From Nemertoderma westbladi (Eukaryota; Animalia; Xenacoelomorpha), in contig JAUCBJ010001808.1 of assembly GCA_032718475.1 (NCBI GenBank), positions 1 to 41,753 on the forward strand: DNA of 41,753 bases, in the 5' to 3' direction. Numbering within the stretch: the first letter of the stretch is position 1; each line of letters starts with the position of its first letter. Below, piece by piece: positions 5,911 through 39,730 of this stretch. The translations under genes were made by a program, and so were the position numbers. Below the pieces are notes generated by a model. The model was not told the origin of the DNA. It ran no database searches and was given only the letters and a program-made list of their open reading frames with translations.

Positions 5911-6359
5911 GCACATCGGCTTTATTATCTTATTGAATTTCTTTACCACTGCTGCAATCACGGGGTCTTCCAAAATAAACACCCTGTCCTGTAACACTTG
6001 TTCCTCCAGCCTGGGGACTTTGTTCTCCAGTGTGAGACCTCGCCCCCCCCCCCCCCCCCCAACCCCGACCTCAGATACCTTCCAAGAACATACACGATAT
6101 AAATCCCATCCCAATCTGTTATATATCTCTGTATTGCTTACTCAAAATCCTGGATTGGGGCAAAAATATAGGTACAAATTTTTTCGTCCTAGCTTTGTAT
6201 ATTCTTATTATTATTATATTTCACCCTCTGCTTGAAGAAGCCCGTGACTTTTATAACAACAGAACTGTAGTTTAGCAATAATGTATTAAATATAAACTGA
6301 AATCTATAACTCTTCTATAATAATAATTTAATTCTCTCCTTATTAACTGATAAACTATA

Positions 6360-8644
6360 GCATAGCATATGCTATGCTATATGCTATGCTATATGCTATG
6401 ATATATGCTATGCTATATGCTATGCTATATGCTATGCTATATGCTATGCTATATGCTATGCTATGCTATGCTATGCTATGCTATGCTATGCTATGCTATG
6501 ATATGATATGCTATGCTATGCGATGCTATGTTATGCTATTCTATGCTATGCTATGCTATGCTATGCTATGCTATGCTATGCTATGCTATGCTATGCTATG
6601 CTATGCTATGCTATGCTATGCTATGCTATGCTATGCTATGCTATGCTATGCTATGCTATGCTATGCTATGCTATGCTATGCTATGCTATGCTATGCTATG
6701 CTATGCTATGCTATGCTATGCTATGCTATGCTATGCTATGCTATGCTATGCTATGCTATGCTATGCTATGCTATGCTATGCTATGCTATGCTATGCTATG
6801 CTATGCTATGCTATGCTATGCTATGCTATGCTATGCTATGCTATGCTATGCTATGCTATGCTATGCTATGCTATGCTATGCTATGATATGCTATGCTATG
6901 CTATGCTATGCTATGCTATGCTATGCTATGCTATGCTATGCTATGCTATGCTATGCTATGCTATGCTATGCTATGCTATGCTATGCTATGCTATGCTATG
7001 CTATGCTATGCTATGCTATGCTATGCTATGCTATGCTATGCTATGCTATGCTATGCTATGCTATGCTATGCTATGCTATGCTATGCTATGCTATGCTATG
7101 CTATGCTATGCTATGCTATGCTATGCTATGCTATGCTATGCTATGCTATGCTATGCTATGCTATGCTATGCTATGCTATGCTATGCTATGCTATGCTATG
7201 CTATGCTATGCTATGCTATGCTATGCTATGCTATGCTATGCTATGCTATGCTATGCTATGCTATGCTATGCTATGCTATGCTATGCTATGCTATGCTATG
7301 CTATGCTATGCTATGCTATGCTATGCTATGCTATGCTATGCTATGCTATGCTATGCTATGCTATGCTATGCTATGCTATGCTATGCTATGCTATGCTATG
7401 CTATGCTATGCTATGCTATGCTATGCTATGCTATGCTATGCTATGCTATGCTATGCTATGCTATGCTATGCTATGCTATGCTATGCTATGCTATGCTATG
7501 CTATGCTATGCTATGCTATGCTATGCTATGCTATGCTATGCTATGCTATGCTATGCTATGCTATGCTATGCTATGCTATGCTATGCTATGCTATGCTATG
7601 CTATGCTATGCTATGCTATGCTATGCTATGCTATGCTATGCTATGCTATGCTATGCTATGCTATGCTATGCTATGCTATGCTATGCTATGCTATGCTATG
7701 CTATGCTATGCTATGCTATGCTATGCTATGCTATGCTATGCTATGCTATGCTATGCTATGCTATGCTATGCTATGCTATGCTATGCTATGCTATGCTATG
7801 CTATGCTATGCTATGCTATGCTATGCTATGCTATGCTATGCTATGCTATGCTATGCTATGCTATGCTATGCTATGCTATGCTATGCTATGCTATGCTATG
7901 CTATGCTATGCTATGCTATGCTATGCTATGCTATGCTATGCTATGCTATGCTATGCTATGCTATGCTATGCTATGCTATGCTATGCTATGCTATGCTATG
8001 CTATGCTATGCTATGCTATGCTATGCTATGCTATGCTATGCTATGCTATGCTATGCTATGCTATGCTATGCTATGCTATGCTATGCTATGCTATGCTATG
8101 CTATGCTATGCTATGCTATGCTATGCTATGCTATGCTATGCTATGCTATGCTATGCTATGCTATGCTATGCTATGCTATGCTATGCTATGCTATGCTATG
8201 CTATGCTATGCTATGCTATGCTATGCTATGCTATGCTATGCTATGCTATGCTATGCTATGCTATGCTATGCTATGCTATGCTATGCTATGCTATGCTATG
8301 CTATGCTATGCTATGCTATGCTATGCTATGCTATGCTATGCTATGCTATGCTATGCTATGCTATGCTATGCTATGCTATGCTATGCTATGCTATGCTATG
8401 CTATGCTATGCTATGCTATGCTATGCTATGCTATGCTATGCTATGCTATGCTATGCTATGCTATGCTATGCTATGCTATGCTATGCTATGCTATGCTATG
8501 CTATGCTATGCTATGCTATGCTATGCTATGCTATGCTATGCTATGCTATGCTATGCTATGCTATGCTATGCTATGCTATGCTATGCTATGCTATGCTATG
8601 CTATGCTATGCTATGCTATGCTATGCTATGCTATGCTATGCTAT
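6360..8644. repeat. (CTATG)n pentanucleotide array, ~2.28 kb, ~450 units
   Basis: Directly visible; nearly perfect after 6541, with a 12-bp period (ATATGCTATGCT) over the first ~100 bp. Confidence 0.99.
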
Positions 8645-10458
8645 AAACTATATTTTTATAATATATTATATATATTAAATATATTATATTATATTTTTTA
8701 TAATTTAAAGTAATTTTGAATATTGTAATATCGATTATAACTGGGAGGATGACTGATGCAGAGAAGTTTGTCTACCTCCGTACAGAGGTACTCCAGATGG
8801 TCCGGAAAATCAATGAAATTAATAGTGCCTCTCACGAGGAGGAAACCCAAATAACGGATAAACTCATGGAATTGACATTAATATTCACAGTAACTTTAGG
8901 GAAGGCAGTTTGCGGCAGAGAGGGCTACTCTCTGCCACTCCAAGAGGCCAACAACTCACTCTAGTTTCCACGCAACCAATCTTCATTTGGTACAGATCCC
9001 GCCGTCTACCAGTCAGCCAGTGGATGCCAGTAACGCAACCCAAACCCAACCCAAGCCTCTCCAACCACCGACTCGGAATGGCAACATGTCTCTCCCCCAC
9101 TATCGCCATACCACCAGTCAGAGGCAGTAAGGTAGGTAGAAGTCTCCACACAGCTAAACAAGCGATCCAAACCTCGCAATGAAAATGTCACATTCTTATA
9201 GGGAGGCTTAATGGACCACTCACGGGGGGACATCGATCAGCATTCGAAACTATAGCCTAACCAGGGAGGAATGGGTTCGGTATGTGGGTAAACCCCATAC
9301 TCTACAATCCTCGCTTCTCCTCTAGCCTCAAATCCTCCTCATTCGGGGGACTAAAATCACTCACCTCCTCACTCAGGCTCCCAACGACTCTCACCTCCTT
9401 GGTGGGGATCCTAACGTCTCCCGCCTCCCCAGAACTATTGATACAATTTTCTCTTTAGAATATAGATAGAGGGTATCAACTATATCAAAAAAAATCTTAC
9501 TAGGGGAAGAGGGAGGGTAGAGCAAACTTTATTGAAGAGTTTAAATTGTCATTACAGGAGAAGCAAATTAGCTATGAAAGATCCAAATACATATTTGAGA
9601 CCATCTTGGGCCAAAAAGTTCAGAAATCATGTTGAAATTTGATTTCTGTGCAGTCCAGACCTAAAATCCAGACCAGACCAAACTTTGCCATGGTGTCACA
9701 TAGGTGTCTGTTCATTGTGAACTACTTAACAAGTTATAGGGAAAAGATATGGAAAAATGAGGCCTATCACAATAGAAATACAGTCCATTTCTCAATCAAA
9801 GCATCATAGCATGAAAACTTTTCAATGAAACATAAATAAAAATTTTCAAATAGTTCTCATATGAATTATCTTCAAAATGAATAATAACCACCTTCTCAGA
9901 ATGATGACTTCTCAAGAAATAGGATTTTTAAAATCCCCAATCGGGTAAATTGTTGTTTCCCAGAAAACGCGTTTAAAGATAAAGGTATAGAAATCAGGTC
10001 ATAAATATCGATAATATTTCAAAATTAGAGATCTATGATGTTTAAACTATATTATTTTCATTATTTATTAAAAGCCTGGTCACATTCAGATGGAATTATG
10101 AAAACACCCATAGTAAATAACAATAGTCATAGGGAGGGCCAATCACCTACTACCCGTTATTTATGACTGCATTGTGGTATTTTGCTGGAAGCTTGAAGAT
10201 GGCTTAACAAATGCCCTGTTATTCAATAATCATATATCTATATCAAGATATGCTCTTTAATGTGAAATTATCCATTTAAGCATCAATAAGTCTGAAAATT
10301 TACAGAAATTTACAACAACAATCTTCATCATATTTATCAATCAATACTGCAATAGATTGGACACAAACACTTCTTCTAACCGATAGATTGGACACAAACA
10401 TTTCTTCTACCCGATCCCAATACGTTTTTGACAACATGATTTGACAATCCTGTTCTCT

Positions 10459-20795: not shown

Positions 20796-20840
20796 TTCTT
20801 CGGTCCCTTGGGACTCTTCCTCTCTCACTGCTCGCTCCAC

Positions 20841-21160
20841 AGTAGTATATGTTTGTATGACCCGGTTCCATGGTCACCCGTAGCCCATCATTACCATCCA
20901 TTTCTAGTACTGCATCCAATCAGAAGCCACCATTTCAACCTTTACCAGTGGTCGTTATTATTTCAACCAATCAGATGACAGCATTTCATCCGAAACCATG
21001 GTAACCTCTCAAGTTCCCGCTTATTCCGCTAGAGGCGTTATTAGTCACCCAACGCTAGTACTGCATCCAATCACCAACCTTTATTTTACAAGTGTTCGGG
21101 TGTCTACACTTAGCATCAGGTAACTTCTACTATTTTTCAAATCGCAATTTTTCACCAACC
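20841..21160 (+). repeat. Polinton left terminal inverted repeat (320 bp)
   Basis: Reverse complement of 38641-38960 with about 3 substitutions seen by eye. Confidence 0.95.
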
Positions 21161-21695
21161 TTTATTTTACAGATGCTAGGAGTGTCTACAGGTAACGTCT
21201 ACTATTTTTCAAATCGCTATTTTTCACCAGTAACTAAATTTAATTTTGCAATTTTTCAGATAACAAAATATTCAACAGGGTTCGAACTCGGGACTGTTAT
21301 AACTCCTCACAACTCACCAATCACTCTTCCATCCAACCTCGAGAGAAAAAGGCGATAAATATCTGAGTTATACCATAGTCATTGAATTCTTCATCTTCAT
21401 CACAGGTAGCAGATGTTTATAAATAGCTTCTAGTTCCTTAACATAATTACTATAGCATAGAATACATTAATTCAACTATTAATAATAATCGATTTCTTTT
21501 ATCGATGTGACTGGTCGGTCAACTAAGTTAAAATATAAGTTAGAATGACAGGGCTAGCATTGATCAGGTTGCATCTGTTACATGTTACTGCTATTTCACT
21601 CTCTAACTCACGCTAATGTAATAAATTTAGCTGTACACGTTGCATCTGTTACACGAAGCTACTATATTCCTCACTGTACTACAATCACAGTCCTC

Positions 21696-22031
21696 ACAAT
21701 GCTACAGGTATATTTATTACATGTAAATTTCCAAGTATTGCTTGAAGTTTTTTTAAATAAATCCATAATTAGAATGAAAACTATTTTGAAAAATAAAAAC
21801 TAAATAAATGATTATTAGAATGTAAAACTTCTGTTTATATGGTTGCTTTAATACAACAGAGTGACTTCTGTTGTATTAAAGCAACCATATAAACAGAAGT
21901 TTTACATTCTAATAATCATTTATTTAGTTTTTATTTTTCAAAATAGTTTTCATTCTAATTATGGATTTATTTAAAAAAACTTCAAGCAATACTTGGAAAT
22001 TTACATGTAATAAATATACCTGTAGTATTGT
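21696..22031. repeat. Long palindrome: perfect 159-bp arms (21702-21860 / 21867-22025) with a 6-nt loop
   Basis: Centre ATACAACAGA-GTGACT-TCTGTTGTAT; pairing followed outward to CTACAGGTA / TACCTGTAG, plus 5 more pairs after one G:T. Confidence 0.95.
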
Positions 22032-23558: not shown

Positions 23559-26500
23559 ATGGATAAACAATTGAAATGTCCATTTTGTCCACTTCAAATT
23601 TCTAAACGAAATTATTTAACACATTTGAAATCACATTTTCACGAATTTCATTGTTTTAATTGTCATGTGAAATGTTCACGTGAAGAAATATGCAAACGAC
23701 ATGAATCAACTACGGGATGTAAAGAAATGAAGTTTTACGTGTATGAAAAAACTTGCCCTACTTGTAATAAAGAGTATTTATATGAGAATTATTTACGTCA
23801 CGACTGTCACCAACGTTATTATCATGTTAGACCACAACGGAACCAAAACAATACTGTCGCATCTAGAAAAAGACTGAAATCTGGTCAGGGTCCATCAATT
23901 TTTAGCCTCGAACGAGCCGCACACGATAACCGTTTAGAAATCTATGTTTACAATCTTCCGAATGATGAAGATTTTCCTGATATTCATTCATCGATAGTTC
24001 ATATTCTACCCCACATTAAAAACTTATTATTAGGAAAACTTAGCGAAATGAATGTACTTAGACCCTGGCTAGGTGTGAATATACTCATGTATCGATCACA
24101 TTTTTCAGAGGGAGACCAAGAAGAAACTTTCTATTTTAGTTCTTCAGGTGGTGCAGTTAATACCGTAGATTCACATGAAAGTTTTGACACATGGTTTGAG
24201 TATGTACTAGAAAAATTAATGCAAAAAATAGCCGTGTTTAACACTCGTGGCTCAGGGTGGCGCGTTAAATCTTTATTAAGAGTGGAAATTAAAGTAGCTG
24301 AATCCAAGTGTAGGTCACTGGAATATAAAGGTCACGGTTATATGGAGTTACCTAAGGCTCTATCAGGTAAACAATGTGTTATAAATATACAAACGGCTGA
24401 TAATGATTGTTTCAAATGGGCAATTATAGCCACAAAATTTAGTACCAAAGTGAAAGATCACAAAAACCGTACTTCGCAGTACAAAAATTATATGAGTCAT
24501 TTTATTTTTGACAACGGGAACAAAGATTATCCAACAGAATGGCCGCTTGCAATTAAACTTTTTGAAAAACAGAATTCAGCATATATAATTAATTTATTAC
24601 TCTACGACAACAATCGAGTATCTATATTAAGACAGGCTCCATTTAGTAAAATCACTCCAGATAAAGAGTTATTGAATATATTACTTGTAAAAAATAAGAA
24701 TACGAGTAAACAATCACATTATGTTTGCATAACTAACTTGAATCGTTTGTTGAATACAAGAGGTAAGCATATTGGATGTAGGAAATATTGTGAACGGTGT
24801 TTGGCGCCTTTCTATACCAAGCAAGTTCTAGAACGTCACCGTCTTGCTTGTTATCGAGGAAAAAGTCAAGTTGAGAAGCTACCGTCTGAAAAAAGAACTC
24901 ACATTAGCTTTAGAAATTTAGACAGAAGATTACCAGCATTGTTTGTAATATATTTTGACATAGAATCTATTTTGGAGCCATCCACCAACAGTAAATTTAT
25001 TCAGAATCATATTCCATGCGCTGTAAGTTATTTAATTGTTCCTAGTAGTGAATTAATCAATCCACCAAAATTTTATTTGAAGACCTTTACAAAAACAATC
25101 GACAACAACTGTATTCAAGACTTTTTAGACTCTGTATATAAGGACATCACCCAATTATATAAGTGGTCAGAAGACCACACAAGAGAGAAAATAATACTAA
25201 ATGATGTAGATAAGTTAAGTTTTTGGAAAGCTAAAACTTGCTTTTATTGCAATGTTTTATTTAAGGATAAATCTGAGAAAAACAAACATCACTCACATAT
25301 TACTGGTAACTATATAGCAGCCGCTTGTAACGCGTGTAACCGCTCTTTATCGTTGAAACGACACATGTATATACTCGCTGCACACAACTGCAATCTCTAC
25401 GATTTGCATTTTCTTTTACAAGTTGGTTTTACCAACAATAAATATTCCGATTGGGATATAAAGGTGATCCCTAAAAATTCTGAAAGGTATATTTCACTAA
25501 GCATGCATATACCGGTGAAAGATGAAAAAACTAAGATCGAGCTACGTGTCTTAGACACATATCAATTTTTATCCTTTTCCCTAAGTACTTTAGTTGATTG
25601 TTCAACAAAGGATATAGACAGCGAGGATATAAAATCAGTTCTACCAATTACTGAACAGCAAATGAAATATTTTTATCCGAATTTAAATAATGCAACAATT
25701 AAGCGAAAAGGTATATTTCCCTACGAGTATCTGACAGATTTAAATATATTCAATGATTCGAAATTACCATCAATAGACAAATTTTATAGTAAATTAACAC
25801 AAAATACCTGTACTCCCGAGGAATATAGTTTTGCCAACGCATCATGGAGTCAGTTTGAGTGTTCAAATCTCAAGGATTATCTTTTAGCATACTTAAAACT
25901 CGATGTTTGTCTCCTCGCCGATATATTTGAGAACTTTAGGAGAGTATGTAGACAAAACTACGAATTAGAAGTAGTTTATTATTGCAGTATCGCAGCTTTC
26001 ACTTATGATTGCGCCCTGAAATACAATAAATGTAAGTTAGCATTAATAAAAGATTACCAAACATATAGAGATTTTGAAGCATCTATTAGAGGTGGGGTTT
26101 CATTCTGTCGAAAGCATTACATAGAATCAAATATACCAGATACTGATAATTATGATCCAAGCAAGGAAGAGTGTCATATTTTCAATATAGATTTTAATTC
26201 CTTGTATTCGGGTAATTTAAGTAAAAAGCTACCTGTTTCAGGTTTTGAACAAGTCAACGTTACATATTTAGAGGTTGCCACTCCAGAAGAACTAATAAAA
26301 TATTTGACAAATCTTGATACTGAAGGGGATATTGGGTTTTTCTTAATTTGCGATTTGAAATATCCCAAAGATATTCATGATCGTACATTAGAACTACCCT
26401 TAGCCCCAGAACATTTAAGTATAAATGAGACAATGCTTTCACCATATATGAGGGAACAATATAATCATGTATGTAAACAAAGAGGTACTAATAGCAAGTA

Positions 26501-27572
26501 TAAGATGTGTGCCCCAAAACTTATGTTGACACAATTCGATAAAGAATTCTATCATGTAAATTTGAAACTGTTAAAATTTTATATAAAACAAGATTTAATT
26601 GTTACTAAACTACATAAATTGTATTCTTTCCATCAAGACTTTGTATTTAAACCCTATATAGATTTTAATATTAATCAAAGACGTTTAGCAAAAACGTATA
26701 TTGAAACAGCTGTTGCAAAGCTTCTGAATAATTCGTTATTTGGAAAAACGATTGAAAAAATAAGAGACCGATGCAACTTTCGTATCGCTAATAGCAAAGA
26801 AAAGTGCGACCTATTGGTGAAACGTATAAATCACGAAAATTTCATGATTTATAACGATTCCTTATCGGGTCACTTATTAGTAAAAGACTCTGTAACTCTC
26901 AATAAGCCGGTCTATATAGGTAGTACTGTCTTGGACTTGGCTAAATTGGATATGTATGACTTGTACTATAATAAATTGCTACCTATTGAGAAAGAATTAA
27001 ACTGTCGAATTGAAATTGTAGCATCAGATACGGACTCTTTAATAGGTTGTTACTATAATACATCACAGAATAATTTTTTAAAAGCCTTAATTAAAAATAA
27101 TATTTTAGATACATCCAATTACCCTAAGGATCACCCTCTCTACAGCGATAAAAATAAATCCAGACTCTATTACTGTAAAGACGAACTAGCCTCACGTGAA
27201 ATTAAACAAGCGGTATTTTTAAGACCAAAATTATATTCAATTTTGGAATGGAATGATTCCAATATACGACGGGCGAAAGGAATAACAAGAGCTGTCGTGG
27301 ATAAAAATATTTGCCACAACGATTATTTAAGAGCATATAAACATAACGAAGAAATTTCCAAGGAAACGCACCAATTTCAGAGTCAATTACACAAAGTGTA
27401 CACTGTAGCACGAGATAAGTTTGCTCTCAGCGCATTTGACGATAAACTTTATTGGGTTAATAAAAATCATTCGCTTCCCTGGGGTCACTATCAAACAAAG
27501 GTTGAAAAACCCGTAAAGAAAAACAATATACCTATTTATCGGGAGCCAAACAATGAACTATCAGATAGTTAA
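23559..27572 (+). CDS. polB: Protein-primed family B DNA polymerase (pPolB), 1337 aa, intact
   Basis: Exonuclease motifs YFDIES, AHN..YD, YLKLDV; polymerase motifs IDFNSLY, KLLNNSLFGK, SDTDS; RKGIFPYEY, IRGG; N-terminal zinc fingers, GSGW and OTU-like DNDCFKWA...HY; EndoVII/HNH-like insert. Confidence 0.97.
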   Translation: MDKQLKCPFCPLQISKRNYLTHLKSHFHEFHCFNCHVKCSREEICKRHESTTGCKEMKFYVYEKTCPTCNKEYLYENYLRHDCHQRYYHVRPQRNQNNTVASRKRLKSGQGPSIFSLERAAHDNRLEIYVYNLPNDEDFPDIHSSIVHILPHIKNLLLGKLSEMNVLRPWLGVNILMYRSHFSEGDQEETFYFSSSGGAVNTVDSHESFDTWFEYVLEKLMQKIAVFNTRGSGWRVKSLLRVEIKVAESKCRSLEYKGHGYMELPKALSGKQCVINIQTADNDCFKWAIIATKFSTKVKDHKNRTSQYKNYMSHFIFDNGNKDYPTEWPLAIKLFEKQNSAYIINLLLYDNNRVSILRQAPFSKITPDKELLNILLVKNKNTSKQSHYVCITNLNRLLNTRGKHIGCRKYCERCLAPFYTKQVLERHRLACYRGKSQVEKLPSEKRTHISFRNLDRRLPALFVIYFDIESILEPSTNSKFIQNHIPCAVSYLIVPSSELINPPKFYLKTFTKTIDNNCIQDFLDSVYKDITQLYKWSEDHTREKIILNDVDKLSFWKAKTCFYCNVLFKDKSEKNKHHSHITGNYIAAACNACNRSLSLKRHMYILAAHNCNLYDLHFLLQVGFTNNKYSDWDIKVIPKNSERYISLSMHIPVKDEKTKIELRVLDTYQFLSFSLSTLVDCSTKDIDSEDIKSVLPITEQQMKYFYPNLNNATIKRKGIFPYEYLTDLNIFNDSKLPSIDKFYSKLTQNTCTPEEYSFANASWSQFECSNLKDYLLAYLKLDVCLLADIFENFRRVCRQNYELEVVYYCSIAAFTYDCALKYNKCKLALIKDYQTYRDFEASIRGGVSFCRKHYIESNIPDTDNYDPSKEECHIFNIDFNSLYSGNLSKKLPVSGFEQVNVTYLEVATPEELIKYLTNLDTEGDIGFFLICDLKYPKDIHDRTLELPLAPEHLSINETMLSPYMREQYNHVCKQRGTNSKYKMCAPKLMLTQFDKEFYHVNLKLLKFYIKQDLIVTKLHKLYSFHQDFVFKPYIDFNINQRRLAKTYIETAVAKLLNNSLFGKTIEKIRDRCNFRIANSKEKCDLLVKRINHENFMIYNDSLSGHLLVKDSVTLNKPVYIGSTVLDLAKLDMYDLYYNKLLPIEKELNCRIEIVASDTDSLIGCYYNTSQNNFLKALIKNNILDTSNYPKDHPLYSDKNKSRLYYCKDELASREIKQAVFLRPKLYSILEWNDSNIRRAKGITRAVVDKNICHNDYLRAYKHNEEISKETHQFQSQLHKVYTVARDKFALSAFDDKLYWVNKNHSLPWGHYQTKVEKPVKKNNIPIYREPNNELSDS

Positions 27573-28098
27573 TAAGAATGTAAGTTGCCAGCAAGTGTCA
27601 GTGATTAATTTTAAAGAATTAAAAAATCAATTATCTGGTAAACACATACTCAAACCAAATCAGTTTATATATAAGATATTTGGTGCCACATTATTAATAT
27701 TTAAAAATAGTCGTATTACATTATTAGGCAGTAAGTATAATTTCCAAAAAGTAAAAAAGCATATATTTGATAAAACTAGTATTAATTTGATTTTAAAATC
27801 TGTTAATTTATGTACTTATATTTTTAGTATTAAGTCTGTAGTCTATAGGTTATTGATAAACAATACCGGGTTTTATGTTGTCTTTGATAATGTGCAACTT
27901 CAAGTTATATATGAACCTGAAATTTTTAATAATTGCAAAATAAGAATAAATAATACCGTAGTCATTTGCTGCTTTCATACCGGTAAATGTACTTTAATGT
28001 GTTCACCTAGCAAATTTCACATTTATTACCCTATATTTAGTAAACTTGTTAATTATTTATTAATGTTTGGTGTTGTGACTTTAGGTGTTGGTGATTAG
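27553..28098 (+). CDS. Divergent TATA-binding protein (TBP)-like protein, 181 aa
   Basis: Two TBP-type repeats: IVN.NVS..INFKEL..ATLLIFKNSRITLLGSK (cf. TALIFSSGKMVCTGAK) and YEPEIF..IR..VVICCFHTGKCTL (cf. YEPELFPGLIYR..VLLIFVSGKVVL); size equals the ~180-aa TBP core; overlaps the polB end. Confidence 0.75.
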   Translation: MNYQIVNKNVSCQQVSVINFKELKNQLSGKHILKPNQFIYKIFGATLLIFKNSRITLLGSKYNFQKVKKHIFDKTSINLILKSVNLCTYIFSIKSVVYRLLINNTGFYVVFDNVQLQVIYEPEIFNNCKIRINNTVVICCFHTGKCTLMCSPSKFHIYYPIFSKLVNYLLMFGVVTLGVGD

Positions 28099-28186
28099 AA
28101 GGTAAAAATTAAACATTATTATTTTTCAATCAATCTATCGGTAGTTAGGGAAAACTAACCTCGTTTGAGTAAGTATGACTCTCACA

Positions 28187-29105
28187 GGCTGACTGCGTGC
28201 CTAGCTGCGTGGCTGGCTGGCTGACTACATGACCGACCGCGAGGCTGACTGCGTGCCGCGAGGCTAACTGCGTGACTAGCTGCGAGGGTGGCTGGGTGGC
28301 TGCGAGGTGGACCGCTTCCCAACAGCGTGGCTGACTGCGCGCACATCCGATTGTAACTGGCTCACGATATTGTATACAATGGTTTAGTTTGTTACTGCGG
28401 GTACTGTTACATTAATACTGCGGTACCAGTACTGCAGTACAATGCTAATAAAAGGAAATCAACATGCTGTATCTGACTATACTGTTACAACAACAACAAC
28501 GACAGTACTGCAGTACTGTATTGTTTGAGTAGGTGATCTAATCCCTATATGTGAGAGCCACGCGTGCCTTCTAGGTTATGACAGCAGTATGCTAATCAAG
28601 GTTCGGGTAGACAGCAGTATCCTTATAGGTGAAAAAAAACAAATGCTATTGCATCAGATTACTGCTGTACTGATAAAGTGGATGACAGTTGTGGATAGGA
28701 GCTGCGAGGTTGACCACATCCCCCAGCAGTGTGGCTGACTGCGTACACAACTGATTGTAACTAGCTCACGATATTGTATACATTGACCTAGTTTGTTACT
28801 GCGGGTACTGTTACATTAATACTGTAGTACAGTAGTAGCAGTACTGCGGTACAATGCTAATCAAAGGAAATCAGTATGCTGTATCTGACTATGCTGTTAC
28901 AACAACAACGACAGTACTGCAGTACTGTATTGTTTAGGTAGGTGATCTAATCCCTGTATGTGAGACCCTTGCGTGTAATCCGGATCATGACAGCAGTATG
29001 CTATTGCTTCAGATTACTGCTGTACTGATACCAGCAGACTGTGACTACAGTGATGGAAGAGTAAAACACTACCGGTACTGATAAAGCGGATGACAGTTGT
29101 GGTTA
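28187..29105. repeat. Central non-coding region: GC-rich GGCTGACTGCG-type short repeats and a ~400-bp diverged tandem duplication
   Basis: GCTGCGAGGT at ~28299 and 28701 starts two collinear copies, each with palindrome ACAGTACTGCAGTACTGT (~28502 and ~28911). Confidence 0.85.
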
Positions 29106-29471
29106 GGCCTATAATAAATTATTGAATTTATCAGTACCGGTACCAACAGGTTAACACTACAACCTATACAGTTTATGTTGCATTTCTGACTAATATTACT
29201 AGTCAACTACTGTATGTGTTATTAGTTTGCGATGTATAGGATGTTTCACAATACCAGTACATCTATATTAGAATGATATCGAGAATACTTACTGTACATG
29301 TTACATCTACGTCATATTGTTAAATGTGTATGGTTAACCTAGCGCAATTGACTCTTTTTAGAGAACTTGTTGTAAAAAAATTATATTTTATTATATTTTT
29401 ATATTAACATCAAGATCATCACCAAAATAAAATTATATTATATCCCATCACATTACATGCTTAGAGTAAAC

Positions 29472-30067
29472 CTACAGTACATCTTCCACCGCAGTTATTT
29501 CTTTCTGTTTATCATCATCAGTCGCAGTTAAACGCTTTCTCATGAAAAAGTGTAGCATCTCATACCCTCCAACGCGTTTTGCTGAGCAATACCTCAGACA
29601 GTTATCCTTTGTGTTTAAGTGGAACGCACATTTATTTTCTACTGTAGTAAATCGGTCGTGAAACCGACAAGGAGTTAAATAATCGTGATATTGCTTATAT
29701 ATTCCCAATCTCTCCACCGAATTTGGCGCGAGAACATCGAGTTGGGTATTTAATATTGCCCGCTTCATCAACCCAAATACATGTATATTTTTTTATATTT
29801 TAAATGTCTCTTCATATATTTTTTAAAGTCATCTTGCGAAATGTCCCCATAGTCCCAGGGCAAGTGAGAAGTCATATCCCGTAAATTGTTTACGTGGGCT
29901 GCATCTAATGCTGATAACTTAATATTAGGTGGGCCTTTAATTAAAAACGTCTTTACATTAGTTTTGGTGTAATTAGAATCAAATATAGCAAATTCTTTAA
30001 ATACTACCGGATACTCTTTATTGTCTATCTTATAATATTGAAAATCAACAAAAATAATATTATCCAT
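29472..30067 (-). pseudogene. DEDD/Maelstrom-like RNase H-fold nuclease (~198 aa), frameshifted near 29790
   Basis: IFVDFQ..VFKEFA..FLIKGP..HLPWDYGDI, then in the shifted frame IHVFGLMK..CAFH..YCS (E-C-H-C pattern); the frame switch lies at an A run. Confidence 0.55.
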
Positions 30068-30098: not shown

Positions 30099-30554
30099 TT
30101 ACAACGCTTGTTGGTTTATTTTATAATAATTAATAAGCCATTTATATAATATTATTTCATTTATTTCCACATTGTTTGTAAACGCTCTCATTGGATAGAT
30201 TGTGTGAATACGATTTACCAAATAATAAAGACAGTACAGACTGCAAGTGGTCCGCCTAGGGTCTTGAAATTGTTTGCGAGTAGTATGCCATCTTGCGGAA
30301 TTTTTCTCAAGCCATTTTTCGATGCATCTGTTTGGATATTTTGGTCCAAACGAGTCAAATAATTCAGCCTCATTATCTCGTATATATATTGCGATCCAAT
30401 GAATCCCTGGCAGATGCTCTTTATCGGTATTTACTATTAAGCCATAGTCTCTTCGCTTATTATTATTATCTAATTTAGGTAATTTATTACCTGGAAACGC
30501 ACCCAAATAGTGACCACCCACTGGAAACATATCAAGATCCTCTGTAGATAACAT
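30099..30554 (-). CDS. Adenain-like (adenovirus/Ulp1-family) maturation cysteine protease, intact
   Basis: IVNTD..PGIHWIAI, FDSFG and FQ..TTCSLYCLYYL give the His-Asp-Gln-Cys catalytic set. Confidence 0.93.
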   Translation of the reverse strand: MLSTEDLDMFPVGGHYLGAFPGNKLPKLDNNNKRRDYGLIVNTDKEHLPGIHWIAIYIRDNEAELFDSFGPKYPNRCIEKWLEKNSARWHTTRKQFQDPRRTTCSLYCLYYLVNRIHTIYPMRAFTNNVEINEIILYKWLINYYKINQQAL

Positions 30555-30556
30555 AC

Positions 30557-31815
30557 TTAATCGATATGTATTTCTTTCCTGCTATTTAAACTTAATGATT
30601 GATCATAAATATTAAAAACGATTACATTTATGGTTTCAACCAACGGTTCAGCAAATCTTAATTTTAATTGGCCATTAGTATATATCGACGGTTGCGGATC
30701 TCTAACATAGCCGTCGGCAGTTAAGTCCCAGGATAGGATGGGGCAATTACCTAAGTAGGTTTCATGGTCTATATTATTACCTCCATAACCATTAATAAAT
30801 GTATTAATGTTCTTCATTATTTTAGTATACTCAAAAATATATGTTCCATCTGTAAAATTAGGCTCGTATATTACACCACCTACTGGAAGACCGTCTACAA
30901 TCAGTTCCGCGCGTCTAAGGTTAAAATTTTTAAATTTCAAGGGATTGCTAATTAATTCTCCCGAATAAGCGTTATTTGTTATGAAGCCAATAATAACTAA
31001 TTTGGGTTTTTTACCATCAAATATGTTTGTTTGGGTGTAATTTGTGGTTTGAGCGGGAATAGTAAATGTTGTAACCTCCTTTTTTTGAAATTGATATTCA
31101 ATATCGTAACTCTCTAAACCTTTTAGGTGACTGCTTTCTATTACGGGATTAACCTCCATTCTAGGGATTAGGATTTTTATTTCATCTAATTCTAGCCGAA
31201 GATTTGTCACCGCGTTTGCGTTTGGAGTGATTTTAAAAATAAACGAATTTGATACTTTTCTAAAATGCATTCTTAAATCATACCCGGGTTGTATTATTTT
31301 AGTTTCAGTATCAAAATCAATCGTCAATCCACTTACAAATTGCATTTGTTTACTAAAGGCATCGCCAATAGGATGCGCACCGGGATCAATTTCATTTCCG
31401 TGTTCAGATAAAGGCTGATGAAAGCCACCCGCACCCAGTAGCCCATTTTTATCCTCGTAAGTTGTAAATAATAAATTGGATAAGTACGACTTGTAGAAAT
31501 AATGGTTATTGCTATTTTCAACCTGCTTCTCATTAAGGTCTATTTTAATATCACTCCACATAGTTTCAGCGGGGTAATTCAGCATATATATATGGGAGTT
31601 TTCAAGTCGTCTATCCCATCGTACAGTACATTTTGTAATTAATAACGCATCTTGCAGTTTCGTATAGAATTCATTGGATCTCGGTACAAGGAACGTGACT
31701 TCCCTAGACTCACTTCTGAGATTAGATACAGGGTAAATTGTTTCATAATGCTTTGCTTTAAATTCAGTCTGTATTGGCTGTGTAGAAAATAAATCTAATC
31801 CTTAATAATTGACAT
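30557..31815 (-). pseudogene. Double jelly-roll major capsid protein (~419 aa), 1-bp deletion after codon 4
   Basis: ATG at 31815 (MSII), then shifted frame GLDLFSTQPIQT..IYPVS..VTFLVP runs in frame into ORF 30557-31585 with PKLVIIGF, AYSG..NPLKF, WDLTAD and LKLRFAEPL motifs. Confidence 0.9.
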
Positions 31816-34356: not shown

Positions 34357-35445
34357 TTATTGAATATGCTGTACCCACGACTGTTTCTTGGATCCGATGA
34401 ATCGGACTAAATATTGTTTCTTCCCATTGCGTACACGTTCTTTAAGTTTGCCAATATTTTTATCAATTGCTAGATAAATATTACTATTCGGGTGGACCTT
34501 TTGGAGTTCGTGAGAATAAAATGAGCCCTTTATTATAGCTCCAGCGCTGTCCTTAATATCGAACATTACAGTAGGTACTCTATCCAGCCTGACACGATGA
34601 ATAATAAATAATTCACGTGTCCATTGTTCTCGATAGCCTTTAGCAAAAGCAGTACGAGCGATAGATAATCGTACTGAATCTCCAACTTTAAATTTTATTT
34701 TCTTATGATTAATCTGTCTATATTTCCCATATAATCTATTCATTAATTCAGTTTCATTAAATTTATTAACTTCAATAGGTGTCATTTTTATTGTCCTATG
34801 ATATGACCTATTATAAGCCGAGATAAGCTTAGGTAAAATTTTAATCCAAACATCATTTCCTCATTGTGTAAAAATTTTGAACATCTTTGTTTTTAATGTT
34901 CTATTGAATCTCTCGACAATAGCCGCCTTATTCACAGAATACATTACGTAATACTGTATACTTAACGTATCTAAATATTTTCTTACAGATTTATTTAGAA
35001 ACTCAGACCCTTGATCAGTCGCGATTCTGTTTGGTTTTCCTTTCTGGAATATTTTTTGCAATATACTAATAATTTCAACACCCTTTTTTGTTTTCATACC
35101 ATAGCCAAAAGCAAGCCTGCTAAAGGCATCAATACATGTTAATATATAGTTATAATTATTATTTTGCGATTTATATTGCTGCATATCCACCAAATCTATC
35201 ATATATATATCTTTTAAACCCCCCGTAAATATTTTAGATGTTGGATAATGATGTCTACGTGGAGCGTGAAGGGTGTATGTCTTTTGCCCACTCAGCCATT
35301 TCTGGGCTTGTGCTGGTTTGATGTTTGCAGCTTTTGCTAATTTTGCAACACTTGCAAATCCCGCGGGGGATGAAGGATCTAAATAAATTCTTAACAGTTT
35401 TTTGTCTAAGCTTCGGCTTAAAATCGGTTTCATCTTGCGAGGCAT
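34357..35445 (-). pseudogene. int: Retroviral-type (rve) DDE integrase with chromodomain-like C-terminus; in-frame TGA at 34863-34861
   Basis: IDLVDM, IDAFSR, TDQGSEF, ERFNRTLK; reading through TGA gives WIKILPKLISAYNRSYHRTIKMTP, then FKVGDSVR, FAKGY..WTRELF and YLVRFIG..SWV. Confidence 0.93.
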
Positions 35446-36188: not shown

Positions 36189-36770
36189 CTAAATCTTAAA
36201 GTGAATCTTCGTGAATCTAAATCTTAGATGTGAAAATGGTTGAATTGTTGCATCTTGATAGGAATCAACTAAAAATTTGGTCTGCCCTGGTAACATCTGC
36301 TTCGCGAAATTTAAAACCGATAGACTGTCTCTCAGATTTTTCATTAATACTAAAGTATGGCTATTAATTGATCTTGTGCGGTTATGCTTCCCACCGTAAA
36401 ACATGTTTTGCGTTATAAAACAAATAAATATATTGGAATGATGAGCTACCTTAGTAAACAATACAGTTAATGCTGTACTGGACTCAGTTTCTGTTAAAAA
36501 ATCATCTATAATTAATAAATCTCGACTATTCACTAAACTATCTATATTTTCGGGCAAGCCTTTGTAAAGGTGAGTAATACCGGGAATAGTCGGGGGATTG
36601 CTCCCGTAACAATACAATACTCGCAAGGGGGCTTCGTTGAAACAACCATTGTTGTGTTTAATTAAATTGCTTACAAAGGTTGACTTTCCAGAACCAGATG
36701 GCCCAGAAATTATCATACTCGTTCCCATTTGAAAGTTTAAATTATATGGACCTGAATTAAAGTCAGCCAT
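36189..36770 (-). CDS. FtsK/A32-like DNA packaging ATPase (C-terminus appears frameshifted)
   Basis: Walker A GPSGSGKS, Walker B LLIIDD, HHSNIFICFITQN, RTRSIN; the expected LRFRSDIF motif lies in another frame across the stop. Confidence 0.92.
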   Translation of the reverse strand: MADFNSGPYNLNFQMGTSMIISGPSGSGKSTFVSNLIKHNNGCFNEAPLRVLYCYGSNPPTIPGITHLYKGLPENIDSLVNSRDLLIIDDFLTETESSTALTVLFTKVAHHSNIFICFITQNMFYGGKHNRTRSINSHTLVLMKNLRDSLSVLNFAKQMLPGQTKFLVDSYQDATIQPFSHLRFRFTKIHFKI

Positions 36771-36986: not shown

Positions 36987-37439
36987 TCAAGCATGGTGAG
37001 CATCTTTATACGCGAAATAATGATAGGTAACATCGGCGGATTGGAAATCACTTCCCGAGAATTTCGCGCTAATGATTTTTTTATGTTCGCCGCTAAAAAA
37101 ATAAGGAATATAGTAGCAACAGCGTCGTACTACATTTCTATAAAAAATATTCTCCAATATTGTAAATAAATCTCCCGGATCATTACTTTCCGCAGAAATA
37201 TAAGTTATATTTCGAAGCTCTTTCCAATAATAGGGTTGATAACTTGCCAACTTTATATTAAACTTAGATATGGGTGCACGACAAATAGGACAAATTTTAG
37301 AACAATAATTATTCATTTCGGAATATTGTACAATACATTGTACGCAAGTTGCATGTTTATTTTCACATTTATAATAATCTCGATGTTGTTGCACTAACTT
37401 AGAATAGCAAACTGGACATTTTTCATTTAAAATATCCAT
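36987..37439 (-). CDS. C3HC4 RING finger protein (putative E3 ubiquitin ligase), 150 aa
   Basis: CPVC-x13-CENKHATCVQC-x14-CPICR; ATG at 37439; minus-strand TATATAAA at ~37573-37566. Confidence 0.85.
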   Translation of the reverse strand: MDILNEKCPVCYSKLVQQHRDYYKCENKHATCVQCIVQYSEMNNYCSKICPICRAPISKFNIKLASYQPYYWKELRNITYISAESNDPGDLFTILENIFYRNVVRRCCYYIPYFFSGEHKKIISAKFSGSDFQSADVTYHYFAYKDAHHA

Positions 37440-38052: not shown

Positions 38053-38640
38053 TATTTAATTTATTTTATTGTAAATCAAACAAACAAAGTAAAAACTTTT
38101 AAACTAAAATCATTACAAATGATTAATTGTGATTAAAGCAAGAGATTATATATATAAGATATTTTAAAAAATAATACAGGTCTTAAACTGAGAAATAGCC
38201 TAAATTCGGTTTATTGATTGGTTGATTAGCCGGGAGGGAAAATGCAGTTTAATTAAAAATTATTGCGTAATAATAATAATCACTAATGTGTGTATACGCG
38301 TAGCTGGAACGTGATGGAATCTCATGTATCATACTGAGTGGTTGGTTTGTTGGTTTGGTGACGGCTGTCGTGGAGTTAGCAATCGATATAATATAATATA
38401 TGCACGATGCGAGTAGTTGGTGGCCGCGTCGTCACCATATACAGTATACAGTGGTGGTGGTAACGTGGCAGTGGTGGTAACGTGGCGAAAAGGTGAATAA
38501 CCGTAGGGTTAGGCAAGCATCGCTGTTGATTGGTTGGTTGGTGAGTGGTTGGGTGGGTAACAGCTGTGGATTGAGTAGCGATGGGATGGGGGGCTAGCCA
38601 TGCATCGTGAGGTTAGGCTATGTGAAGATGAATATGCAAT

Positions 38641-38960
38641 GGTTGGTGAAAAATTGCGATTTGAAAAATAGTAGAAGTTACCTGATGCTAAGTGTAGACA
38701 CCCGAACACTTGTAAAATAAAGGTTGGTGATTGGATGCAGTACTAGCGTTGGGTGACTAATAACGCCTCTAGCGGAATAAGCGGGAACTTGAGAAGTTAC
38801 CATGGTTTCGGATGAAATGCTGTCATCTGATTGGTTGAAATAATAACGACCACTGGTAAAGGTTGAGATGGTGGCTTCTGATTGGATGCAGTACTAGAAA
38901 TGGATGGTAATGATGGGCTACGGGTGACCATGGAGCCGGGTCATACAAACATATACTACT
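38641..38960 (-). repeat. Polinton right terminal inverted repeat (320 bp)
   Basis: Reverse complement of 20841-21160; ends ATACTACT. Confidence 0.95.
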
Positions 38961-39730
38961 CTCCCCACACTTGAATCACACTGCTTTCACTCCCTCACGC
39001 GCCAACACCTCCTCTCCTTACTTCCCCGTTTCTCTTATACTCAATCGATATCTTGTTTTCATCCTCCATACCCTCCTGTAAACCTCATTAGTGTGGCCAC
39101 ACTTGAGAAATGGGATCCGTCTAATGTCTCGTCCTCCTGTCATAGTCAATTGGTCCCCAATCCCAGCAGCTAATTAGAAAATGTTATATATGACTATAGT
39201 ACATTGACTGATTGTACATTGATTGTATATTTATATTGATTAATTATCTACATACGTACATACTAATTGCACTTAATTATTTGTACTTAGGAGTTCGTAT
39301 TTGCCTTCCAGATCGATGGTTGGTGTCCTTTTGGTACCCAACTCCCCTGAGGAAATCCCCATAGGCCCTCAAATATGCTACCAACTTCTTCCACCTCTTT
39401 TAGGGTGTGTCCACCTCTCTGTCCACTAGGTGTCGGCTATCGTAGTACACCGACTCGCACGTCAGCCCTGGGTGTTCTACAAGACCCTCAAAGGCAACCT
39501 TAAAGGCTATCCTGTGATTTAGAGGTGCTCCTGATAGCAGAAACGCCGTCGGCTCTCTTCCGATAACCACGGCCATGAATAGGTTTAATAAACCTATCAT
39601 TATCCAATCCTCCTGTAAGATATATATATCTCTTCTGATATATCTTTATCGCTCCCCTTCGGAGCCTATATACCTCTTGCTTCCCCAGCCTCGCTCCCAA
39701 TTTCAGCGAGTTCGCCAGTTCCGCTCCGTA

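Follow-up and report, generated by a model that had tools for sequence, protein, structure and literature searches.

A divergent TBP-family gene in an 18-kb Polinton of Nemertoderma westbladi

The window analysed here is the whole of contig JAUCBJ010001808.1 of Nemertoderma westbladi (GenBank assembly GCA_032718475.1), 41,753 nt in length, and contains a Polinton of 18.1 kb bounded by 323-nt terminal inverted repeats (TIRs) that are 99% complementary. Overlapping the end of its gene for a Polinton-type DNA polymerase B (pPolB), this element encodes a divergent member of the TATA-binding protein (TBP) family, a real and selected gene of a kind barely described in print. Long TIRs and a 6-bp target-site duplication are features of Polinton/Maverick/adintovirus elements, and the 6-mers at the two edges of this one, CTCCAC and CTCCCC, match at five of six positions and likely represent such a duplication with one mismatch. 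The following features were identified in the element.

20841..21163, no strand: left TIR, starting AGTAGT, with CTCCAC (20835-20840) just before it
23559..27572, forward strand: pPolB, Polinton-type DNA polymerase B, intact, 1337 amino acids, assigned by database similarity
27553..28098, forward strand: TBP-like gene, 181 amino acids, two lobes, core only, isoelectric point (pI) 9.6, assigned by Pfam, profiles and predicted fold
28108..28113, forward strand: ATTAAA, a polyadenylation-like hexamer, 10 nt past the TBP stop
28318..29003, no strand: non-coding, GC-richer tandem duplication of ~405 bp, separating two convergent gene blocks
30099..30554, reverse strand: adenain-like cysteine protease (PF00770, E 3.2e-4, slightly below cut-off; resembles related loci)
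30557..31815, reverse strand: major capsid protein gene, broken near its start, longest open frame 342 amino acids
32379..34092, reverse strand: two minor-capsid-like genes, the upstream one broken in this copy, assigned by likeness to open frames of related loci
34357..35445, reverse strand: retroviral-type (rve) integrase, split into two open frames in this copy (PF00665, E 6e-11)
36189..36770, reverse strand: packaging ATPase (P-loop, A32-like; Pox_A32, E 1.3e-3, below cut-off; resembles related loci)
38638..38960, no strand: right TIR, ending ACTACT, with CTCCCC (38961-38966) just after it

Both hallmark genes of a Polinton, pPolB and the rve integrase, are thus present, the latter split in this copy, along with the ATPase, protease, and major and minor capsid genes, the capsids being assigned by similarity and gene order; with the TIRs, this gene set upholds the original prediction that the host element is a Polinton. 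The best match of pPolB had 42% identity across residues 800-1337, with PF03175 on many of the matched proteins, and its named relatives were few, all from an arthropod, at 33-35% identity, in keeping with an animal host. The major capsid label derives from likeness to protease-linked open reading frames (ORFs) of 430-445 amino acids in related loci, there being no Pfam match, and leans also on what we take to be the usual Polinton gene order; the minor-capsid label is likewise in part our presumption. Several element genes are interrupted in this copy, whilst polB and the TBP gene are intact. As had been predicted, the element yielded no gene for an RNA polymerase.

The TBP ORF runs from ATG to TAG and shares 20 nt with the 3′ end of pPolB, so that the earlier description of an intact 181-residue frame overlapping the polB stop was accurate, as was its recognition of two TBP-type repeats, the motifs of which were located at residues 45-61 (ATLLIFKNSRITLLGSK), 120-125 (YEPEIF) and 140-148 (CFHTGKCTL). 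At 25% GC, 181 open codons are expected by chance at about 3e-8, and the other five frames contain 14-31 stops. The Pfam TBP family (PF00352) was matched at E 5.2e-6 (26.6 bits, the cut-off being 22.9) by the C-terminal lobe only, and a weak match to the NCBIfam TBP profile (E 0.021; residues 6-148 against positions 9-157 of 183) spanned both lobes. A leave-out profile made from four Polinton-locus TBPs and three archaeal TBPs, the window protein being excluded, gave the window protein 23.6 bits across residues 4-149, compared with 12.0 for the top-scoring of 1000 shuffles. A five-sequence profile retrieved 87 proteins, 86 of which carried a precomputed PF00352 assignment, and 35 PDB sequences that were TBP chains or fusions by name, bar one unnamed protein. 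Searches with the single sequence yielded 43 candidates in the protein database, none at E 0.01, one chance match among PDB sequences, and no homologue among viral contigs or phage records.

With an 89-sequence alignment, AlphaFold2 predicted a two-lobed saddle for the window TBP, with a predicted local distance difference test score (pLDDT) of 82 and a predicted template modelling score of 0.69. Among the Foldseek matches listed, ranks 1-44 were all TBP chains (E 3e-8 to 3e-6), the first non-TBP fold appearing at E 9e-4, and VIA-align placed yeast TBP at Z 13.7 (root-mean-square deviation 3.3, 169 residues aligned) ahead of the next fold at Z 8.4. In the predicted model, residues 1-175 superpose on yeast residues 63-240 as two lobes of one chain forming a saddle. 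The fold and Pfam results therefore agree with the original assignment, and the ORF is almost certainly a TBP homologue, a member of the family but not a canonical TBP. Its identity to each of 228 other TBP-family sequences compared was no more than 26%.

The element was found in many variant forms among DNA runs of one organism label. Variants over 27000-28200 were counted in the best 40 of 149 rows, as a rough count on contig variants in which each was scored singly, not by a codon model. The TBP ORF carried 19 variants in these rows, 13 synonymous and 6 non-synonymous, whereas a synonymous fraction of 0.19-0.26 would be expected (p at most 1.5e-4), which gives a rough ratio of non-synonymous to synonymous rates (dN/dS) of 0.11-0.17; the polB end carried 21, of which 13 were synonymous and 8 non-synonymous. 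All eight small indels in the same rows fell outside the ORF, four of them within 35 nt past its stop. The synonymous excess among copies supports purifying selection on the TBP ORF, and the ratio is not near 1, in line with the conserved gene that the original prediction had envisaged.

A comparison set of 137 loci with related pPolB (3773 open frames searched) contained a TBP gene at four, designated L026, L030, L033 and L034, and TBP stands outside the canonical Polinton core genes, as had been stated. Since it was carried by 3 of the 31 loci of at least 12 kb and by 2 of the 11 loci whose capsid protein matches that of the window element, TBP is an accessory gene of these Polintons. The original prediction had further described the gene as coupled to pPolB; the 20-nt overlap is real here but is not a family trait, as no TBP directly after polB was detectable in the 73 of 137 loci that continue for 700 nt or more beyond polB. 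Synteny with polB in other Polintons was likewise not borne out: in the four relatives other genes intervene and TBP starts ~1.1, 1.1, 3.5 and 5.6 kb past where the polB match ends, albeit on the polB strand in all four. The polB-TBP overlap is hence particular to the window element. Among copies of the window element, a divergent form in the runs labelled X4 and X5 swaps the junction between the polB end and the TBP start (27499-27605) for 123 other letters, and the overlap therefore differs between subfamilies. Run X5, which may be RNA and bears a different organism label, was not counted as evidence of expression. The ATTAAA hexamer past the TBP stop is possibly a common 3′ end for polB and TBP, although such hexamers are frequent in the AT-rich DNA here.

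In L026, Asn replaces the first TFIIB-binding Glu of the TBP, and a TFIIB gene overlaps the TBP gene. The locus (L026/L151, 9876-11074) lies on a 20.6-kb Polinton contig in a giant-virus bin, where the TBP gene overlaps a gene for a 231-residue TFIIB (PF00382, E 5e-11) and pPolB is apparently split by an intron. The E-P-E stirrup, in contrast, is kept where no TFIIB was detected (the window element, L030 and L033, the latter two on partial contigs), a comparison in which the TFIIB-bearing side consists of one locus, L026. No Pfam TFIIB was found in the 17 ORFs of the window element, although a very divergent or broken gene could escape such a search, and tblastn of the L026 TFIIB against the element returned nothing at E 10. 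Almost all TBP-bearing viruses examined in PMC7221094 reportedly encode TFIIB as well. Scans of viral contigs with other TBP queries recovered no new Polinton locus with P0154, and with A4 the L026 contig again and nothing else; the A5 query led to a contig of giant-virus type, on which a canonical-like TBP lies next to the capsid gene, and likewise to no new Polinton locus. Among the comparison loci, L102-L137 are 36 contigs with Polinton-type pPolB inside bacterial and archaeal metagenome-assembled genomes, and are probably mis-binned eukaryotic-virus DNA.

The arrangement around polB bears on whether the protein might be a replication or packaging accessory, acting with pPolB as a DNA bender at the terminal repeats or the central repeat. 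The overlap in the window element, the shared strand in all four relatives and the use of a TBP-like fold by rolling-circle initiators (the Z 8.4 match) would suit such a role, but TBP adjoins polB in none of the four relatives, and the E-P-E stirrup together with the TFIIB neighbour in L026 suggests transcription; we consider a replication role quite unlikely.

The phylogeny was inferred from 59 rows picked from 229 sequences to span the groups, with a bootstrap that had not fully settled. The window TBP grouped with L030 and group A at 98/85 and had the longest end branch of the tree (2.27), but a constrained grouping with eukaryotic TBPs was not rejected (p-AU 0.113, approximately unbiased test), and both one old capture and repeated captures are compatible with the data. 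The branch length, the eukaryotic grouping and the loss of otherwise invariant residues would suit a captured host TBP gene that is decaying as a functionless passenger. Such a gene would, however, hardly be expected to retain an open frame with a synonymous excess and no indels (best 40 of 149 rows) amongst broken neighbours, to have homologues in other Polintons, or to show at most 26% identity to the 228 other sequences, and we regard this explanation as very improbable. Of the retrieved TBP homologues, several lay on contigs 20-23 kb long or belonged to clusters with as many as 198 members on megabase contigs, which fits mobile elements. The multi-copy short TBPs P0198, P0201, P0202 and P0204, on megabase contigs, have a CCFHTGK turn in common with the window TBP and were among its best single-sequence scores, yet are separate from it in the tree.

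Residues were numbered after yeast TBP via P0273, whose residues 134-314 correspond to yeast 59-239, and the roles given are those we take most TBP residues to have, save where a paper is cited. The canonical group (107 sequences) and group B (53) were chosen by motif, and values of 100% at motif positions are thus by construction. Equivalents of yeast N69, T112, L114, F116, V161, E186, P187, E188, F190, R196, V203, F207, G210 and K211 are kept, including window residues N7, F50, F125, F141, R131, E121 and E123. The intercalating Phe residues proposed as a check are retained at three of four positions (F50, F125 and F141), but the first, in the N-lobe (yeast F99), is replaced by Pro35, a substitution common to the window TBP, L030 and all 21 group-A sequences. 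Both lobes have a Phe (F50 and F141) at what is by our reading the L5.1 position, the importance of which is described in PMC7221094. The cofactor surfaces also gave a divided answer. The C-lobe Glu pair, E121 and E123, is kept, and two such glutamates are TFIIB contacts, the first being conserved in ~40% of viral TBPs (PMC7221094). The N-lobe and helix-2 surface is changed (E93 to H, R107 to F, K138 to S and K145 to S, with a less sure alignment in helix 2); these positions presumably serve TFIIA, Mot1 and TAF1. Compared with cellular TBPs (PF00352; yeast 7o4i_O and 1rm1_A, human 5fur_A, archaeal 1mp9_B), to which the structural matches are at 16-20% identity, the window TBP is alike in its two-lobed saddle of ~180 residues, the L5.1 Phe of both lobes, the YEPExF stirrup and the FxxGK turn, and differs in the Phe-to-Pro change, a shorter N-stirrup, its base-facing changes, its location in a mobile element and the lack of an N-terminal extension.

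The stirrup could also serve a Pol III route, in which it would recruit host Brf1 or Brf2 and the element would make a small non-coding RNA. Brf1/2 contact the same TBP glutamate (PMC7221094), and repeats occur in the 1.3-kb non-coding centre of the element; against this, no Pol III-type gene was seen, though none was searched for, and the basic residues of helix 2 appear lost in the less certain part of the alignment. We give this route very little credence.

The reading towards which we lean is that the window TBP is the promoter factor of the element, predicted to bind its AT-rich promoters and recruiting host TFIIB and RNA polymerase II (Pol II) and favouring the virion block. TBP would be made with or after pPolB, by an internal start or from a shared transcript, and its C-lobe (F125, F141, R131) may still kink the 5′ end of a TATA-like box, whilst the remodelled N-lobe (Pro35 and the shortened stirrup) and the changed base-facing residues would shift or relax specificity. 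The kept E121-P-E123 stirrup would dock host TFIIB, the host being proposed as its source because no TFIIB gene was found in the element, and the altered N-lobe and helix-2 surface may escape control by TFIIA, Mot1 and TFIID. As a result, the capsid, packaging and integrase block would be transcribed once replication begins. The redirection of host Pol II to late promoters suggested by the original prediction is thus favoured by residue conservation, but the element yielded no late-promoter word, and the redirection stays at the level of inference.

Upstream words were tested against dinucleotide shuffles, the P values for L033 and L030 allowing for a search over all words of the same length; TTAAGC and CATAAAC had been spotted by eye before testing. 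A motif test against random positions was dropped, as many TBP-less loci looked significant in it, a misleading outcome caused by AT-rich spacers. TTAAGC was found upstream of 7 of 14 genes in L033 (P 0.01), and CATAAAC upstream of 5 of 12 in L030 (P 0.01), the latter with 12 copies on the coding strand and none on the other; both are enriched, element-specific and variant TATA-like words. Amongst the ten virion-block genes of the window element, the degraded state of which leaves gene starts partly uncertain, TATAA lay upstream of seven (P 0.033) and TATAAGA upstream of two (P 0.02), both values uncorrected for ten motifs, and YATAAACR, TATAAATA and TAAGA preceded one, none and three, respectively.

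Such counts might also reflect a general TBP substitute that uses ordinary TATA/TATAA with relaxed specificity and lifts early and late element genes alike, with no private code. TATAA precedes 11 of 16 element genes including polB (6.7 expected, P 0.017 uncorrected), and an element-specific word was not found in the window element; the base-reading face is, however, heavily altered and the relatives have non-canonical words, which makes a general substitute unlikely. About equally doubtful is a decoy or inhibitor that ties up host TFIIB (or Brf) by its acidic stirrup, or blocks host TATA boxes, thereby damping host or defence transcription. This would explain why the TFIIB-contact Glu pair is kept in a protein that has lost many base contacts and its N-lobe surface, and why the window element has no clear box, but a decoy need scarcely keep three intercalating Phe residues, the N69 and R196 equivalents and a basic character (pI 9.6); moreover, the L026 TBP adjoins its own TFIIB, which fits a productive complex, and two relatives have upstream words.

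Several observations weigh against the promoter-factor reading. The best de novo word in the window element, AATCATT (5 of 16 genes, P 0.05), is not TATA-like, no promoter word there was significant against dinucleotide shuffles, and the distances of TATAA before virion-block genes are scattered from 32 to 109 nt. L151, the element with both TBP and TFIIB, had no significant upstream word, and 2 of 14 TBP-less controls reached P 0.02 with other, GC-rich words. In the base-facing positions V71 is changed to N, V122 to T, T124 to L, N159 to S, S163 to R, P191 to N, L205 to C, V213 to T and T215 to M, and G216, invariant in the comparison groups, is changed too; TATA binding is therefore not to be assumed. 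Folding, and not TFIIB, may be what preserves the E-P-E motif. The good AlphaFold2 model relies on aligned TBP-like proteins, the prediction from the single sequence being poor (pLDDT 41, with nothing found by Foldseek at E 0.001 or better), the variant count comes from the best 40 of 149 rows, and TBP is dispensable in the group, as its presence at 4 of 137 loci and at 3 of the 31 longer ones indicates.

The functional model resembles that of the beta- and gammaherpesvirus TBP mimics, such as ORF24 of KSHV (Kaposi's sarcoma-associated herpesvirus), a TBP-fold protein of a nuclear DNA virus lacking an RNA polymerase, which directs host Pol II to TATTWAA late promoters (PMC12529657). KSHV ORF24 is large and multidomain, binds Rpb1 directly, works together with five further viral factors and is modelled as unable to bind TFIIB directly (PMC12529657), whereas the window TBP is a bare core (residues 1-175) with no Rpb1-binding domain, keeps the TFIIB glutamates and has TATTWAA before none of the ten virion-block genes. 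By analogy, it would work like the herpesvirus late TBP mimics but is not one of them. Viral TBPs are also known in giant viruses and poxviruses (PMC7221094; PMC12917281), and those of nucleocytoviruses (PMC7221094; matches EsV-1-53 and HaV TBP in BFVD) are similarly virus-encoded and two-lobed with a diverged N-lobe. Nucleocytovirus genomes are far larger and nearly all have TFIIB (PMC7221094), in contrast to the 18-kb element, in which none was found. As noted, the element also shows no RNA polymerase gene, and many nucleocytoviruses encode their own.

The closest precedent in print is a TBP-like gene, labelled 'TBP', in a MELD virus with an adintovirus-like PolB, a midsize member of the Polinton group (Starrett et al. 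2021, PMC8502044, Fig. 5 legend; bioRxiv 10.1101/697771). It is a legend label, with no analysis in the text excerpted; section 3.4 of that paper deals mainly with non-animal datasets, and a text search of its supplement (~4.0 million characters) did not find the term TBP. The word 'polinton' is absent from PMC7221094. A literature search for a study of a Polinton TBP, outside which subscription papers and figures fell, found that legend only; TATA matches in PMC10675990 (mirusvirus-like elements) and PMC12220804 (a reference list), and TFIIB passages in 10.1101/2022.05.25.493380 on giant viruses, were discarded as unrelated to a Polinton TBP. The novelty left open by the original prediction is therefore partial: no study was found, but this is not the first sighting.

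Other observations concern the remainder of the window. The GC-richer non-coding centre (28160-29130) has short TGACTGCG-type repeats and the ~405-bp tandem unit, the copy number of which varies among copies, and is a possible enhancer or origin. On the reverse strand, two short ORFs (29472-30067) jointly resemble small ORFs of L030 (11226-11690) and L033 (8389-8943), albeit weakly (E 2.5) and with the nuclease-like label being our own reading; that of L033 lies directly 3′ of its TBP. An accessory ORF at 36987-37439 (reverse strand) is RING-finger-like, with Pfam matches below cut-off. A near-perfect 165-bp inverted repeat with a 6-nt loop (21696-22031) copies the start and upstream region of a 240-residue ORF at 21961, and is either a genuine fold-back or an assembly artefact. 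Outside the element, ~2.3 kb of a 5-bp (ATGCT)n satellite (6300-8700) is a source of spurious long ORFs, and the flanks contain fragments that by our reading resemble non-LTR (long terminal repeat) retrotransposons.

The gene bears on how Polintons control their capsid genes and on whether they have a true viral cycle. A broader reading, which we hold tentatively, is that a widespread Polinton lineage has a one-protein transcription switch, in which a minimal TBP, its DNA face rewired, recognises a TATA variant specific to the element and engages host TFIIB and Pol II directly, and that a sister lineage with a swapped stirrup Glu carries its own TFIIB. The self-encoded TBP is one small, assayable protein with clear predictions of DNA specificity and TFIIB use, and such proteins are natural TBP variants that may read non-standard boxes. 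With this gene, the range of viral TBPs reaches beyond giant viruses and herpesviruses to integrating elements of 18 kb; if the proposed switch is true, no smaller viral take-over of Pol II initiation would be known, and it would be evidence that these 'transposons' follow a timed early-to-late viral programme.

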